Shown in pieces: positions 1 to 5,065 of a DNA stretch of 40,470 nucleotides. The first letter of the stretch is position 1. Every line of letters begins with the position of its first letter. Both the position numbers and the translations under genes were made by a program. The notes beneath the pieces are model-generated. The model was not told where the DNA came from, made no database searches, and worked only from the letters and a program-made list of their open reading frames with translations. Source of the DNA: Elainellaceae cyanobacterium (GTDB lineage: Bacteria > Cyanobacteriota > Cyanobacteriia > CAZCXK01); assembly GCA_051117555.1 (NCBI GenBank), contig JBNPEG010000022.1, positions 1 to 40,470 on the forward strand, in the 5' to 3' direction.

Positions 1-121
1 CATCCTGTCCAACAGTTGGTAAATTAGCTCTTGGGCGTGGGCAAGGATCTTCATGAGACTTGCAATTTATTGGTTCCACGCCCTTTTTTCTCATTCCTGC
101 TGCCTAGGTGCAAGATATGAG
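1..121 (-). mobile_element. End of an insertion sequence with the N-terminus of its transposase (ATG at 54, MKILAHAQELIYQLLDRM..., runs off the window edge); probably IS701/IS4-like DDE type
   Basis: Minus strand reads CTCATATCTTGCACC (121-107), resembling a cyanobacterial IS terminus. It is followed by an ORF whose first 18 aa resemble cyanobacterial DDE transposase N-termini, recognised from memory. Confidence 0.6.
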
Positions 122-252
122 TATATAAAAAGCGTTTGAGAACTATCTGGGAATTTTGATGAATTTTTCGGGTTGGATGGTTATGATGGGGCGATCGAAG
201 TAATTTGACTCAGCAAATAGCAACCTCAATCCTTTAATTCTTTATCAATTTT

Positions 253-2025
253 TCAAACGGTAATCTTATCTAATAGATACTTTACAAAGTCCTCCCGCTT
301 GACAACGGTATTCAATGACAAAGTGGAATCTGTTGTTAAATACTCACTCGTGAACTCAATGATATTGATAACAGCTTGGCCGATAAGTGGAAAATCAGGT
401 TCTTCACCTATTACTCGATCAAAGTCTTCCATCATGTACGTCTTTTTCCCTAAAGTCTTAATCGTCATAAACATAGCAAGATGAAATATTAAACTTCGCA
501 AAGTAACCGAACTTAGTAACTCGTTACTGTGCTGTTCTCTCAATTGAGAAAATTCATCAGAGCGGATAAATTTCTCTATAGTTTTAAGCGTCTTTGAGCA
601 ATATAAATACAATCGAATATCTACAGAGTCATTGAAGACGCGAGAATAGTTAAATTCTCCTTTGGTAAGAGAAGTTGGCTTACCTTTTGAGTTATGAGGT
701 TCTCGAAAAACCATTGCAGTAAAAGCTTGAGCTAGGTATGGGATGCTTACTATCCGTTCTGATGGTTTACCAATATTTTTATAATAGTTTTTTCGTCGAT
801 CATAAAACCATCCATTTTTAAGAAAATAGTCTTCTATATCGCGTTGAATTGGTTCAGTAGCCCTCAGCGAAGCTGCGGGAACTGGAGTTTGGAAGTTTGT
901 TGCTTTTATAATTCTATCCCTTGTTTCAGAATCGCTTTCTACAACAATAATCTTTATTAAGACTGCTCTGTTCTCTTGAACACTTTTAAAGCTATCTGAA
1001 GGGGTACTATTCGATTGAATAGGCGTGGAATCAACGTACTCATAAATTGTATTGGTAGTTTGTAAACCATTGACAATTTGAACATCATCTAATGTGATAA
1101 CTTTTCCAGCAATACTAGCCTTGGATGCAATAATTGTAATACCATTATTAAGCCACCAGAAGTCAATGTTCGATCTATCATGATGTTCGAGAGTTTTTCT
1201 GATATCCTTATTTACGGCAACATCTCCTTGATAATCTCTCACGTTGGACTCAAAAATATATTTTCTTAGATTCCCCATTTCATCAGAAATAAAATCGTAA
1301 TAGTCTTTCAAGCTAGACAAAACTACGTAATTGTTTTCACCTCTGGAAATATAATTTTCTAGAAATTTTAGTTGTAAAGAATAGCTTTTTTCTTGTCGTG
1401 AAACCGCAAGCAATTCTCTTGCTCCGATAAAATCGAATGAGAATTCAGCTCCTACAAGATATTCTTCAATAATCTGGCGCAAAGTATTAACCTTCGAATG
1501 TATTTTTTGATTTAATTCCTTAGCATTTCCTTTGCTAGCATAAACATATTTGATACGAAGTCGTGGATGCCTATTAGCCAATTCAACATATGCCTTTCGG
1601 AATGTATTGACCTTTTCAACGAGTAAGGCATTATAAATTTCTTGAACTTTTTCTATATTCTTACTCAGATTGAATATGTCATGTGCAGTTGATATTAGGG
1701 TTTCAATAGGCTTCTCTTTGAATGAAGAACTAACTTTCGATTGAATCATGAAAATTTCAAATACTGGATTCTTCTTGATTCCCTCCAAGTCAAAATCTTC
1801 GTCTATCAAGTCTTTGTTTATGAACATAAAAAATCCATCTATTCCTCCATCATCACCCCCGTCAACCTTTCCAGAAAGCAATTCATCGTATGATAAATCA
1901 TTATCCTTTAGGACTTGTTCAAAAGAAAATAGCTCAAAGTATTCGCTTGAATTTATCGACTCAGCAGAGTCTTTTCTTTTCTGCTCAAGAATGCTATCCA
2001 AGACGATTACATCATTATTACTCAT
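253..2025 (-). CDS. AIPR family (abortive infection phage resistance) protein
   Basis: 590 aa with motifs DGGDDGGIDG, IFESNVRDYQG, FWWLNNGITII, QIVNGLQT and TNFQTPV typical of AIPR. AT-rich with no HIP1 octamer seen. Confidence 0.9.
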   Translation of the reverse strand: MSNNDVIVLDSILEQKRKDSAESINSSEYFELFSFEQVLKDNDLSYDELLSGKVDGGDDGGIDGFFMFINKDLIDEDFDLEGIKKNPVFEIFMIQSKVSSSFKEKPIETLISTAHDIFNLSKNIEKVQEIYNALLVEKVNTFRKAYVELANRHPRLRIKYVYASKGNAKELNQKIHSKVNTLRQIIEEYLVGAEFSFDFIGARELLAVSRQEKSYSLQLKFLENYISRGENNYVVLSSLKDYYDFISDEMGNLRKYIFESNVRDYQGDVAVNKDIRKTLEHHDRSNIDFWWLNNGITIIASKASIAGKVITLDDVQIVNGLQTTNTIYEYVDSTPIQSNSTPSDSFKSVQENRAVLIKIIVVESDSETRDRIIKATNFQTPVPAASLRATEPIQRDIEDYFLKNGWFYDRRKNYYKNIGKPSERIVSIPYLAQAFTAMVFREPHNSKGKPTSLTKGEFNYSRVFNDSVDIRLYLYCSKTLKTIEKFIRSDEFSQLREQHSNELLSSVTLRSLIFHLAMFMTIKTLGKKTYMMEDFDRVIGEEPDFPLIGQAVINIIEFTSEYLTTDSTLSLNTVVKREDFVKYLLDKITV

Positions 2026-2235
2026 ACTTGTTCCTCATCCCTTATTACAACCAATTGCTTAGCTTTAACGCGCTTACTATATTAAACAAACCCTAATCAA
2101 ATTGCCATTTGCCTCAATAAATTGTCCTGTCTGAGTGCGATCGCCATCTCCCATCAACGTATGATGTTAAGTAAACCAATAAGGCAAAGCTTATTTTCAC
2201 TAATCATCTCTAAACTATTGCAGCAGAAGATAAAG

Positions 2236-2331
2236 GGCGATCGCGTCTTGAGAGTCATTTACAATCAAACTACCGAACCTTGGCGAATTGTAACCGTCTA
2301 TTTTGACCGCACTCAAAGGAATCGACTATGA
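2236..2331 (+). pseudogene. C-terminal remnant of a DUF4258-type (putative toxin/RNase) gene
   Basis: GDRVLRVIYNQTTEPWRIVTVYFDR matches the DUF4258-type C-terminus and overlaps the DUF2283 gene by ATGA. In-frame sequence upstream of 2236 looks unrelated. Confidence 0.65.
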
Positions 2332-2528
2332 AGCTTCAATTTGACGAACAAGCCGATGCCCTCTATCTCCGTCTAGACGATTCTAAAATCATTGAGTCTG
2401 AAGAAGTTCAGCCCGGAATCATTCTCGACTTTGACGAAAACAGCCAAGTTGTTGGTATCGAAATTTTAGATATTAAGCGTCGCGTTCCACAAGCCAATCT
2501 AAAACAGCTTCAATTTGAGTTTTCATAG
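2328..2528 (+). CDS. DUF2283 domain protein (putative antitoxin)
   Basis: MKLQFDEQADALYLRL...EEVQPGIILDFDENSQVVGIEIL is the DUF2283 pattern. Confidence 0.9.
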   Translation: MKLQFDEQADALYLRLDDSKIIESEEVQPGIILDFDENSQVVGIEILDIKRRVPQANLKQLQFEFS

Positions 2529-2724
2529 CTGATTGACTGACAAAACTAATCATATTAGCGGCTGTTCGCACGTTGAGCGATCGCAGTGTTGCTGTCAAGC
2601 GTGCAGAGACATGTTGGGCGATCGCCATGCTTCTGTGGGGTAAATCAAACCAATGTGAGTCATCGCAATTCAATGATCATCGATAACATTCACATGTCGA
2701 GCCCTGATCATTCGATGTCGCTCT

Positions 2725-2816
2725 ATGACAATGGCATGTTGAGTGATGACAATGGCATGTTGAGCGATGACAATGGCATGTTGAGCGATGACAATGGCAT
2801 GTTGAACGATGACAAT
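2725..2816 (+). repeat. 21-bp tandem repeat (ATGACAATGGCATGTTGAGCG, ~4.4 copies) with degenerate units extending upstream to ~2660
   Basis: Units start at 2725, 2746, 2767 and 2788, with a partial unit at 2809. Confidence 0.95.
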
Positions 2817-3092
2817 CCTTCTGTAACGGCTGCAATAACTCGCTAAATAAGAACTCAAGGACGCTGAATTTTTGATGCTCGGAGTGATTATTAAAGCACT
2901 CAAAGTGATTAATTTTGGGCGAGTCCATTCGGCTCTAACCCAATCATATTACGGATTTTCCCTCGATCAGACCAACAGATCTCCGGCTTCTGTAGCCCCT
3001 AATCATGATCTGGAACACCCGAAAGAGAAGCCAGGGATCTTCTCGATCAATCACTGATTGTCAAGTCTCGACAAAGACCCGCCATACCACTG

Positions 3093-3121
3093 TTGTTTTT
3101 ACAGGTGACGTGCTGTATTCT
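3093..3121 (+). promoter_or_regulatory. Putative sigma70-type promoter (TTGTTT-17 bp-TATTCT)
   Basis: Spacing would place the start site near 3128-3131, just before the structured leader. Confidence 0.35.
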
Positions 3122-3130
3122 CAGCTATCA

Positions 3131-3321
3131 AGCGCTCAAACATGAGCAGCGTCCCCCAGCAGTGTTAGCCCACGTGCCGGGAGACTGACCCTCCAATCTG
3201 ATGTCGCCAGACGGAAGGCTACAGGCATTATGACACTCCTGTTAGCCATCCCGCTTTTGCTATGCAGACCGGAGAATGGCGTCTCGTTTGAGCGCTCCTT
3301 CAACTATCCAAAAGGAGTGTT
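3131..3321 (+). ncRNA. Putative structured cis-regulatory 5' leader RNA
   Basis: Perfect 11-bp long-range stem AGCGCTCAAAC (3131-3141) / GTTTGAGCGCT (3286-3296) enclosing four hairpins, plus two anti-SD segments. Confidence 0.5.
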
Positions 3322-3326
3322 TCATC

Positions 3327-3563
3327 ATGGTAAATCCCAACGAACCGCCGGAGCGGTTTGACCCATCGTCATGCAATAACGACGACCGAGAAGTACTGCG
3401 CGTGATTGCTGTCGGTTCGCTCAAAGTCGTCAACCAGTACATCATGCAGATGTATCAGCTCAACTATGCACAGCCCTACGAATGGTCGAAACCCATTCCT
3501 ACGGTCAATCCCAATGAGGTGATGTGTATTCTTACACGCTACTTCAAAGGATTGAGTGAGTAA
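3327..3563 (+). CDS. Small cyanobacterial hypothetical protein (78 aa)
   Basis: SD AAGGAG at 3312-3317 and ATG at 3327. The motif REVLRVIAVGS..VVNQYI..MY.LNYA...EWSKPIPT.NPNEVMCILTR resembles a widespread uncharacterised cyanobacterial family. Confidence 0.8.
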   Translation: MVNPNEPPERFDPSSCNNDDREVLRVIAVGSLKVVNQYIMQMYQLNYAQPYEWSKPIPTVNPNEVMCILTRYFKGLSE

Positions 3564-3568
3564 TCTGA

Positions 3569-3660
3569 TATAGCCTGACGCTCTCGCGTTAGGACGCTGA
3601 ACGTGTGGTGACCCCGCGGCGCGAGGGCTCACCACACAAACCCAAGCCCGTAGGACTATA
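3569..3660 (+). repeat. ~92-bp dispersed miniature repeat (MITE/SDR-like), copy 1
   Basis: TATAGCC...GGACTATA termini and an internal GTGTGGTGA...TCACCACAC hairpin. Reverse-complement copies at 12654 and 24027. Confidence 0.85.
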
Positions 3661-3687
3661 ACGACGATTAAAGGACAATAGCCTGAT

Positions 3688-3719
3688 GGGTATGGCGTTG
3701 CTGAGGCATTGCCATGCCC
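3688..3719. repeat. REP-like imperfect palindrome
   Basis: GGGTATGGCGTTGC-TGAG-GCATTGCCATGCCC. Confidence 0.5.
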
Positions 3720-3835
3720 GATTTCTGCCATTTAGTGCAGCATCATCCGTTTACTCGGTCAACAATGCCCATCCGAGATTAGGATAAAAATATCATCTTA
3801 ATTTTTTAGAGATAATTTCTAGGATTGGAGAACAT

Positions 3836-4267
3836 ATGATTCGGCAACTTAGACCCGCTTGGATAGTCAAAACCGCCTTAATTGCAGGACTCTTTGCATT
3901 TGGAGGGCAAATGGCGATCGCCCAGACCGAGGTTCGCAGCGGCGTACTTCAGTTTATCCAGCTTCAAAGTTTGGCAGATCGCAGGTCTACCCTCTCTGAG
4001 GGGACGTTGGCAGATTTGCAAACAGACCCAAACTTTGATGGCGATTTTCAAATGATTTTCAACGACGCAGCCGCGATTTTAGATGATTACACCATCGTGC
4101 AGCGCGGCGGCTATTTCCCTGAAAACGCGGGTATTCCTCGTGATCAGCAACTGACCGTCGATCAAGCTGTTTATCGAGTCTATGCCCTCGACGATGGCAA
4201 TCAACTGGTGCTTTACCGCACTCCATCTGAGAATACAGCCCGCTATTTCATTCGTGAGAGTGCTTAG
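3836..4267 (+). CDS. Hypothetical exported protein
   Basis: SD GGAG upstream and a signal peptide ending AIA-QT. No recognisable domain. Confidence 0.75.
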   Translation: MIRQLRPAWIVKTALIAGLFAFGGQMAIAQTEVRSGVLQFIQLQSLADRRSTLSEGTLADLQTDPNFDGDFQMIFNDAAAILDDYTIVQRGGYFPENAGIPRDQQLTVDQAVYRVYALDDGNQLVLYRTPSENTARYFIRESA

Positions 4268-4327
4268 ACCTGTCGCAGCGGCGCTGAAATTGCGTCTTTT
4301 GACGAATGCTGTTTGATCGTTGCGAGC

Positions 4328-5065
4328 ATGGTTGAACTTTCAATACGGTTCTATGGCGATCTCAATTATTTCTTGCCGATCGCCCGCCAGCAGGTGCGAT
4401 TTGTTCATACGCTCCGCGAACCTGCTTCAGTTAAAGATGTGATTGAATCACTGGGTGTCCCTCATCCGGAGGTGGCACTCATTCTTCTCGATGGCAAATC
4501 GATTGGATTCTCGCATTTAGTGCAGCAGGGCGATCGCCTCTCGGTGTATCCGCAATTTCGAGCTGTTGATATTTCTGCGGTGTCTCAGGTGCAGCCCGCT
4601 CCGCTGCCTGATATACGATTTGTTGCGGATGTTCATCTGGGCAAGTTAGCGATGCATTTGCGGTTGCTGGGGTTTGATGTGCTCTACGAAAATAACTATG
4701 ACGACGACACCCTCGCAACATTGGCAGGCGATCGCCGCATCTTGTTGACCCAGGATCGGGCATTGCTGAAACGAAGCGTGATTACGCACGGTTACTGTGT
4801 TCGCAGCAGCGACCCGGTGCAGCAGCTTGATGAAATCTTGCGGCGATTTGATTTGTATGGGGCGATCGCCCCGTTTAAGCGCTGCTTACGCTGCAACGGG
4901 ATACTCAAGCCCGTCAACAAACAAGACATCCGCGATCGGCTAGAACCGCTTACTCGCAAATATTATGACGAATTTCGCATGTGTCAACAGTGCGAGCAAA
5001 TTTATTGGAAAGGGTCCCATTACGAACGCATGCAGCAATTTATCAGCGATGTCCTTCCGGCATAA
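4328..5065 (+). CDS. Mut7-C ubiquitin/RNase domain protein
   Basis: N-terminal ubiquitin-like SVKDVIESLGVPHPEV, FVADVHLGKLA..LRLLGFD, and Zn-ribbon CLRCNG...CQQCEQIYWKGSH. Confidence 0.92.
   Translation: MVELSIRFYGDLNYFLPIARQQVRFVHTLREPASVKDVIESLGVPHPEVALILLDGKSIGFSHLVQQGDRLSVYPQFRAVDISAVSQVQPAPLPDIRFVADVHLGKLAMHLRLLGFDVLYENNYDDDTLATLAGDRRILLTQDRALLKRSVITHGYCVRSSDPVQQLDEILRRFDLYGAIAPFKRCLRCNGILKPVNKQDIRDRLEPLTRKYYDEFRMCQQCEQIYWKGSHYERMQQFISDVLPA

Follow-up and report, generated by a model that had tools for sequence, protein, structure and literature searches.

In type I toxin–antitoxin loci such as hok, tisB, zorO and aapA1, an upstream anti-Shine–Dalgarno (anti-SD) sequence in the mRNA leader keeps the primary transcript untranslatable; such loci occur in several copies, have a narrow range and lie in islands. 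Type III toxin–antitoxin (TA) systems of the ToxIN type have an RNA gene directly upstream of the protein gene, with one promoter and in defence-rich contexts. In cyanobacteria, the glutamine riboswitch in the 5′ UTR of gifB is described as an aptamer in the leader of a small-protein gene, needed for expression of that gene (PMC6212724). Orphan riboswitch candidates, for example the yjdF motif, are reported as complex aptamer-like leaders found almost exclusively before one uncharacterised protein family, with a ligand that could not be deduced from gene context (PMC4793209). A 2026 screen of 202 cyanobacterial genomes, confined to the surroundings of 931 KEGG-annotated gene groups, lists 409 novel structures (PMC12873609).

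The locus described here lies in a 40,470-nt stretch of forward-strand DNA from an Elainellaceae cyanobacterium (contig JBNPEG010000022.1), hereafter the window. It carries a structured RNA upstream of a 78-amino-acid (78-aa) open reading frame (ORF). Like the yjdF motif, the RNA is a complex aptamer-like leader tied in most lineages to one uncharacterised family, and its ligand is not deducible from gene context; it differs from the orphan candidates in matching no Rfam family, in its many diverged copies, in having two segments complementary to the ribosome-binding site (RBS) and in preceding other ORF families in one lineage. Upstream anti-SD sequences and multicopy island loci are common to this system and the type I toxins, but the protein here is predicted to be hydrophilic and folded, no antisense RNA is known, and a covarying five-helix junction stands where type I leaders have a simple long-range clamp. 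The order of RNA then protein, the single promoter and the defence-rich setting recall type III TA. However, the RNA lacks a tandem array of short repeats (Tandem Repeats Finder, run on 2500–3800, reported only a 21-nt array at 2725–2816, outside the RNA element), and the 78-aa protein has no ToxN/AbiQ-like match. With the gifB leader it shares the setting, a cyanobacterial aptamer-like RNA before a small-protein gene, but no Rfam family matched the element at E 10, the glutamine families included if they are in Rfam, and the glutamine aptamer is much smaller than the five-helix element.

Scanning positions 2000–5000 against Rfam 15 with cmscan gave four matches at E ≤ 10; the highest score was 17.8 bits (threshold 39), and all four lay outside 3129–3301. 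Twelve diverse homologous loci gave seven matches at E ≤ 1, all far under the gathering threshold. A match to SymR on the opposite strand of one homologous locus (L189; 25.5 bits, threshold 61, E 0.37) was considered and attributed to chance. The leader had been called undescribed in a first-pass annotation of the window made from the letters alone, and no Rfam 15 family reaches its gathering threshold in the window or in the 12 homologues. A literature search found no description of the RNA or of the protein, and the 409 structures in the supplementary material of PMC12873609 could include the element. A structured leader that sequesters an RBS is a known kind of regulator; no description is known of this RNA family, of its occurrence as a multicopy cassette or of the protein that goes with it. 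Conserved, intricately folded, present in many copies in this genome and its relatives, and seemingly built to conceal and free an RBS, the element is a strong candidate for an RNA switch of a new class.

Layout and copies of the cassette

The window region is one copy of a self-contained cassette, in which a promoter-like region is followed by a leader RNA of ~173 nt and the 78-aa ORF, all on the forward strand. The structured RNA element (3129–3301) was delimited by its match to a covariance model (R1; 153 bits, E 9e-44) and by covariation, and consists of five helices, P1 to P5, around one junction. The closing helix P1 is formed by a 5′ strand (3131–3141) and a 3′ strand (3286–3296) that pair at 11 of 11 positions; the same two strands were recovered in an inverted-repeat search as an 11-bp, 100% complementary repeat. 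The 3′ strand, which has alternative partners in other lineages, is the putative switching strand. P1 encloses the P2 hairpin (3151–3185; model helices 2 and 3), the P3 hairpin (about 3190–3218; model helices 4 and 5), the weak P4 hairpin (3221–3242), which carries a conserved AUUUUA loop (AUUAUG in the window) and the anti-RBS motif CACUCC, and the P5 hairpin (3245–3280; model helix 6) with a conserved loop motif. The perfect basal stem described in the first-pass annotation is therefore present, and its four enclosed hairpins correspond to the consensus helices P2–P5 of the family.

The Shine–Dalgarno (SD) region, AAGGAGTGTT (3312–3321), has a GGAG core (3314–3317) and a GUGUU extension, and can pair with either of two segments of the RNA. 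Anti-RBS segment 1, ACACTCCTGTT (3233–3243), forms an inverted repeat with 3310–3320 (91% complementary in the inverted-repeat search) and covaries with the RBS; it contains the second anti-SD that the annotation had located mostly in its third hairpin. Anti-RBS segment 2, AGCGCTCCTT (3291–3300), comprises the six 3′-terminal nucleotides of the P1 3′ strand and a CCTT flank, and its pairing with 3312–3321 extends over 10 bp with two G–U pairs, exactly as annotated. The ORF, which encodes a member of an uncharacterised small-protein family and is recognised by its homologues and by purifying selection, occupies 3327–3563. A further inverted repeat, between the P1 3′ strand and 3404–3425 within the coding sequence, is confined to the protein subfamily with a Lys codon at that place and was rejected as a chance match.

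Upstream of the RNA, the promoter-like region (3093–3121) consists of a −35-like TTGTTT (3093–3098), a 17-nt spacer and a −10-like TATTCT (3116–3121), which together match 7 of 12 consensus positions; the 5′ end of the transcript would then lie at ~3128–3130. This position and a GGTTGT-containing motif are kept in paralogues and in distant genomes, and a consensus scan of 2950–3850 called no promoter or terminator sites. As a sequence match, the promoter-like region is weaker than the first reading had it; the support for a promoter that places the 5′ end at the basal stem lies in its conserved position in other copies.

The window's genome is 6.06 Mb in size and divided into 256 contigs. A search for sequencing runs returned four, all of soil-metagenome DNA and none of RNA. 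The stretch 3089–3563 has eight full-length DNA matches in it, with 76–100% identity, and the homology between copies has a sharp 5′ boundary near 3089 (3057 in two copies) and extends as far as the stop codon. A protein search of the same genome returned 18 matches at E < 1e-15 as well as one copy cut by a contig end, and model R1 finds 18 RNA copies. Seventeen of these RNAs precede ORFs from the protein search; the eighteenth (C168:17624–17785) precedes a divergent family member.

Covariation and competing pairings of the RNA

Folding of 3120–3335 gives −71.3 kcal/mol (z −3.2), a value matched by none of 200 shuffles. The case for structure beyond chance comes mainly from conservation and covariation among homologues. 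For 31 closer copies, RNAalifold predicts P1, P2, P3 and P5, with compensatory changes at 12 of 33 pairs. In a wider alignment of 42 homologues, which was fitted to model R1 and so favours the structure, pairing holds in 93.2% of pair cells, where shuffles reach 78.8%; compensatory changes are seen at 26 of the 34 pairs; and the covariation score is 0.434 as against 0.188 in shuffles, with none of 500 attaining the observed value. When the partners were slid by 1–3 columns as a control, 35–45% of cells paired and scores fell to 0.07–0.10. Compensatory changes in these 42 sequences occur at 9 of the 11 pairs of P1, 8 of the 10 of P2, all 5 of P3 and 4 of the 8 of P5, where 96% of cells are paired. 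Between lineages, the sequence of P1 is completely different and its pairing is retained. The multi-branched leader claimed by the first-pass annotation is supported by this covariation.

Conservation of sequence is found in the CUAAC of the P2/P3 junction, the AUUUUA loop and CACUCC of P4, and the stem and loop motif of P5. G–U pairs are common in P5 and P1, and the model is strand-specific: the five listed reverse-strand matches score 18.6–23.5 bits, as against 145–178 bits for the forward strand of the same loci. When every pair of columns was scored across 50 sequences, the modelled helices ranked at the top and no clear extra pairings or pseudoknots emerged; the first pairs outside the helices come at rank 14 with scores of at most 0.25, below thirteen pairs at 0.27–0.50. 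These comparisons argue firmly for a real RNA family rather than a chance structure.

On average, both anti-RBS segments pair best with the RBS of their own copy. Duplex energies were computed for 45 non-redundant units, with the GGAG RBSs that precede long ORFs in the same genome as background; the copies are related, so these tests cannot count as independent. The 3′ strand and loop of P4 form a duplex of mean −14.4 kcal/mol with their own RBS, −10.6 with the RBSs of other copies and −9.6 with the background, and prefer their own RBS in 36 of 45 units. The corresponding means for the P1 3′ strand and its flank are −11.2, −9.0 and −8.8 kcal/mol, with their own RBS preferred in 34 of 45 (−15.2 kcal/mol for the window copy). 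As a hairpin, P4 by itself has a mean energy of −3.6 kcal/mol and reaches −2 or below in 41 of 50 sequences.

The same correspondence is visible in individual motifs. Among family RBSs that hold GGAG, 22 of 42 read GGAGUG, compared with 11 of 217 in the background, and this SD extension is the complement of the P4 CACUCC. Where the segment varies, the RBS varies with it: UUCUCC in one copy is matched by GGAGAA, and GCUCC in others by GGAGC. At one locus (L082), almost the entire P4 is complementary to the RBS as far as the start codon. For the second segment, several lineages have a copy of the P1 5′ strand immediately upstream of the SD, so that the P1 3′ strand can pair either way, and the copy at C168:17624–17785 has an 11-bp pairing between its SD region and the flank of its P1 3′ strand. 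As judged from the aligned sequences, both anti-RBS segments covary with each copy's own RBS, and the competing anti-SD pairings first noted in the window recur in distant homologues.

For the window copy, the MFE structure (−71.9 kcal/mol) has P1 closed, and enforcing the pairing of 3291–3300 with 3312–3321 gives −68.5 kcal/mol; in this second fold, which lies 3.4 kcal/mol away and occludes the RBS, the freed P1 5′ strand makes a hairpin of its own. A pairing that excludes an aptamer helix and covers the RBS, as the expression platform of a riboswitch does, is thus available by computation. In nested-fold ensembles of 81 units, an unpaired SD has a mean probability of 0.17 when the RNA is included and of 0.33 when it is left out, and values below 0.2 occur in 55 of 81 units with the RNA and 22 of 81 without; by this calculation the 5′ UTR structure sequesters the SD as in type I toxin mRNAs. 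The first-pass annotation had proposed mutually exclusive ON and OFF folds, with riboswitches, type I toxin mRNAs and autoregulatory leaders as models. Two nearly isoenergetic folds do exist, and both alternative pairings cover the RBS; the ON state is one that we infer rather than see.

The small protein and its linkage to the RNA

Ten validly aligned paralogue pairs of the 78-aa ORF have dN/dS values of 0.07–0.18 (an eleventh, misaligned, was dropped), which marks the ORF, on codon evidence, as real and under purifying selection. Its conserved start is the ATG at 3327, and the in-frame upstream extension present in the window is shut by stops in other copies. The protein profile matched 286 cluster representatives at E ≤ 1e-3 among 1.84 billion. 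Pfam has no family for the window protein or 28 relatives, sequence searches of PADLOC, NCBIfam and the PDB with the 78-aa protein gave no matches, and a protein atlas returned only unnamed cyanobacterial clusters, at 0.89; the description of the protein as uncharacterised holds against all four databases. Rare fusions join the family to TIR_2–WD40 (P0160) and to a nucleotidyltransferase (P0124).

An AlphaFold2 model built from 66 sequences (pLDDT 84.6) predicts a β–α–β core, with strands at residues 21–30 and 65–74 and a helix at 32–44; the first 20 residues have low confidence (mean pLDDT 55–56). The protein is hydrophilic, with a predicted soluble core and a disordered acidic N terminus, and is thus not of the small hydrophobic, membrane-active kind seen among type I toxins. 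In the model, the β–α–β unit resembles half of a ferredoxin-like fold, and the protein probably dimerises. Foldseek found nothing at E ≤ 1e-3 with this model, and the best Z score in a wide fold search with VIA was an uninformative 3.8.

A family ORF lies downstream of the RNA at all 18 copies in the window's genome, at 22 of 28 distant loci (and at a further one, L100, at E 5e-4) and at 47 of 60 further loci. All 13 exceptions in this last set come from one genome (G050), in which each of the 13 copies examined lacks the family ORF and is followed by repeat insertions and then by one of two other unannotated ORF families, both absent from the window's genome. These insertions place some hundreds of bases between the RNA and the next ORF. 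At two other loci (L086 and L087), the RNA likewise precedes unrelated ORFs. These other ORF families, the many copies of the unit and its wide spread among cyanobacteria all go beyond what the first-pass annotation noted. No downstream ORF family has a Pfam, NCBIfam or PADLOC annotation, so the controlled genes do not point to metabolism or transport of a ligand.

The orientation of the RNA relative to the downstream ORF is always the same, and in most copies the RNA ends 21–34 nt before the start codon. In nine copies from the window's genome and the related genome G002, an insert of ~110 nt, made up of heptamer repeats and a second GGTTGT-containing upstream region, separates RNA and ORF, which loosens their coupling in cis. 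The protein family also extends beyond the RNA: a Nodosilinea-type subfamily has no R1 match but has a conserved leader hairpin of its own, and distant members on plasmids and chromosomes have no R1-type RNA.

Genomic setting and candidate mechanisms

Among the neighbours of 36 copies (from the window's genome and G002), no recurrent partner gene was found. We counted domains of defence, TA or mobile-element type in 28 of the 127 ORFs nearby (PIN, Uma2, DUF5615, DarT, Macro, TIR, nSTAND, NACHT, CHAT, caspase, AAA_15, tyrosine integrase, IS200 transposase, a methylase and others), and the others are ordinary genes. Three copies have a tyrosine integrase immediately upstream. None of the 127 has a reverse-transcriptase domain, and one has a group II intron maturase domain only, which does not correspond to a retron. 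In the window's genome, a contig end is no more than 5 kb away from 15 of the 18 RNA copies, as it is for 35% of genome bases overall. G002 aligns to the window only from 3764 onwards (91%), which identifies 1–3763 as a variable island; it contains AIPR, a DUF4258/DUF2283 pair, a repeat ORF and the cassette. Comparison of 18 G002 loci with the window's genome defined no empty site. At several such loci, a contig of the window's genome ends near the expected position of the cassette.

We favour, with a probability of about 0.45, the reading that the RNA is a candidate riboswitch-like translational switch that is off by default and opened by an effector. The RNA forms an aptamer-like five-helix junction closed by P1 and bears the two RBS-complementary segments. 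Without effector, one of these segments would capture the RBS and keep translation off by default; binding of the effector to the conserved junction and loops would lock P1 and P4 and thereby release the RBS. A conserved multi-helix fold with covariation, as in a riboswitch aptamer, is what the alignments contain; switching itself, its direction (with the effector as the ON signal) and the nature of the effector we infer. Since in one lineage the RNA precedes unrelated ORF families, we lean towards an effector other than the encoded protein, such as a small molecule or a signalling nucleotide. For a metabolite riboswitch, 15–28 diverged copies per genome before one small-protein family would be unusual. 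An elaboration of this reading, which we consider quite unlikely in its full form, would make the RNA the sensor of a multicopy, RNA-gated small-protein cassette in defence or addiction in filamentous cyanobacteria, with an infection or stress signal (for example, a nucleotide second messenger) unlocking growth-modulating proteins and each diverged copy keeping a matched anti-RBS.

The tie of the RNA to one protein family in most lineages also fits autoregulation, which we regard as doubtful but as a serious contender. The 78-aa protein, probably as a dimer, would bind the junction and loops of its own leader and fix the fold that hides or frees the RBS, in the manner of ribosomal-protein leaders, and RNA and protein would duplicate and diverge together. 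The family ORFs found after the RNA throughout the window's genome and at most other loci, the best fit of each anti-RBS to its own RBS, and the conservation of P5 and several loops in sequence, beyond their pairing, as expected of a protein-binding site, are all in line with this; the separate leader hairpin of the Nodosilinea-type subfamily suggests that leaders are a general trait of the protein family. Against it stand the RNAs before unrelated ORFs (the 13 copies of G050, L086 and L087), the distant plasmid and chromosomal members that lack such an RNA, and fold searches that returned no nucleic-acid-binding relative. Another serious contender, though we consider it unlikely, is a lock of the toxin-mRNA type on a selfish or defence cassette: a harmful small protein would be encoded by an inert primary transcript that is translated only after processing or in response to infection or stress, perhaps with further control by an antisense or trans RNA. 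In its favour, the predicted default state of the SD is paired, the anti-RBS pairing of P4 is far stronger than the P4 hairpin (−14.4 versus −3.6 kcal/mol), and the cassette is multicopy and diverged, often close to contig ends, with defence, TA or mobile-element domains among its neighbours and with the rare TIR_2–WD40 and nucleotidyltransferase fusions; the window copy itself sits in an island absent from G002, beside AIPR and the DUF4258/DUF2283 pair. Yet the hydrophilic protein with its confidently predicted soluble core is unlike membrane-active type I toxins, PADLOC has no match to the family, no antisense RNA is known, housekeeping genes are frequent among the neighbours, and a five-helix junction with conserved loops goes far beyond the needs of a simple lock.

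A lower probability still attaches to a stand-alone RNA gene, with the ORF as a passenger or a target in trans; such an RNA could be a trans-acting, RBS-blocking sRNA for the paralogues, a ribozyme or the RNA of a mobile element. The RNA does have its own promoter-like region, nine copies have a second GGTTGT-containing upstream region in the insert before the ORF, repeat insertions part RNA and ORF in G050, and the anti-RBS could reach the RBSs of other copies (the cross-copy mean given above). The cis arrangement speaks against this, given the usually short distance from RNA to start codon and the part that the P1 3′ strand takes in RBS pairing; furthermore, the window has no terminator-like site between RNA and ORF, and the neighbours include no recurrent partner gene, be it a transposase, a reverse transcriptase or another. 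That the element is a DNA-level repeat, a MITE or an integron attC-like site whose inverted ends mimic an RNA stem, we consider highly improbable. The 11-bp perfect terminal inverted repeat, the many copies, their frequent position near contig ends and the integrase upstream of three of them would suit such a repeat, but the internal helices covary, G–U pairs make the structure specific to one strand (~20 bits on the reverse strand, at least 145 bits on the forward strand), the orientation to the downstream ORF is fixed, and no target-site duplications or empty sites could be defined; neither strand-independent structure nor footprints of mobility were found.

If the switch reading holds, the RNA represents a large uncatalogued class of structured RNA: R1 matches occur in 31 of 151 sampled genomes of the class (28 of 132 high-quality genomes; 25 of 81 genera), and carrier genomes often contain a dozen or more copies, counts of 18 meaning at least 18 as 18 candidates were scored per genome. 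Its architecture would be on a par with established riboswitches in complexity, and it would control a small-protein family described in no database. The natural compensatory variants of the P1, P4 and flank pairings offer a system in which to study how two anti-RBS segments and a junction gate translation, and identification of the effector could add a ligand class or an RNA–protein regulatory pair to those known. Through the RNA one could also learn what this widespread family of orphan proteins does in the variable islands, rich in defence genes, of filamentous cyanobacteria.

The protein profile has matches in 19 of 41 related genomes, the window's genome included, with 28 matches in G002, 22 in G037, 18 in the window's genome and 15 in G001. 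Named carriers are thin filamentous cyanobacteria (Elainellaceae, Leptolyngbyaceae, Oculatellaceae, Crinalium, Nodosilinea, Halomicronema and others). Phage records contain no homologues of the protein, and distant homologues with 39–53% identity occur on eight cyanobacterial plasmids, one of them between parG and a replication gene.

Flanking genes and repeats in the window

The cassette (a promoter-like region, the five-helix leader RNA at 3129-3301 and the 78-aa ORF at 3327-3563) is preceded in the window by an ORF at 2586-2846. This ORF contains a 21-nt unit in 4.4 tandem copies (2725-2816), which are translated into a repeated heptapeptide, and stretches related to it occur at about 10 sites in the source genome. 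Further upstream, within 253-2528, the minus strand carries an AIPR (abortive-infection-like) gene; the same stretch holds a small gene pair of the toxin-antitoxin type, DUF4258 (weak match) and DUF2283. At the syntenic position in G002, another cyanobacterial genome, the entire stretch corresponding to window 1-3763 is absent.

The 78-aa ORF is immediately followed by a roughly 95-nt palindromic repeat (3566-3660), which includes a hairpin at 3603-3637. This repeat is MITE- or REP-like, with 115 sites distributed over 76 contigs of the source genome (at a coverage of at least 60%). Beyond it, at 3673-3720, is a 48-nt repeat, of which the source genome has 12 copies over 11 contigs.

Variable surroundings of the RNA at other loci

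In nine copies, two in the source genome (G000:C219 and G000:C95) and seven in G002, the RNA is separated from the ORF by an insert of about 110 nt (loci L014, L060, L044, L046 (two copies), L048, L049, L053 and L055). The insert comprises tandem repeats of a purine-rich heptamer, a second GGTTGT-containing upstream region and an SD of its own. Three copies of the cassette, L044 and L050 (G002) and L056 (G000:C211), have a tyrosine recombinase gene (Phage_int_SAM_4 and Phage_integrase domains) upstream on the same strand, the end of which is about 300-400 nt from the start codon of the cassette.

R1-type RNAs, that is, those found by covariance model R1, are also located upstream of two different unannotated ORF families in three other cyanobacterial genomes: L217-L229 and L092 (G050), L086 (G028) and L087 (G029). 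Palindromic-repeat insertions usually intervene between the RNA and these ORFs. One family is composed of proteins of about 130-200 aa (33% identity between L087 and L092, E 4e-12), and the other has a weak resemblance to HTH_36.

A second subfamily and unusual family members

A second subfamily of the small protein has another conserved leader than the R1-type RNA (L156, L160, L161, L163, L167, L176 and L178, from Nodosilinea, Halomicronema and Leptolyngbya records). This leader is a single long hairpin with a conserved loop, immediately 5' of the SD, and gave no match to model R1.

In the source genome, the ORF copy at G000:C28:2586-2819 is disrupted in its N-terminal part: the family match begins at model position 15, in a frame that differs from that of the ATG, and this copy may be a pseudogene. 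Fused forms of the family are rare. P0160 is a 580-aa TIR_2-WD40 protein with a C-terminal family domain, and in P0124 a nucleotidyltransferase domain precedes the family domain. Distant homologues are carried by small plasmids, namely Trichormus variabilis plasmid D (L187) and a Scytonema plasmid (L188); one is flanked by parG and a replication-related gene, and one is arranged divergently to a gene for an HTH regulator.
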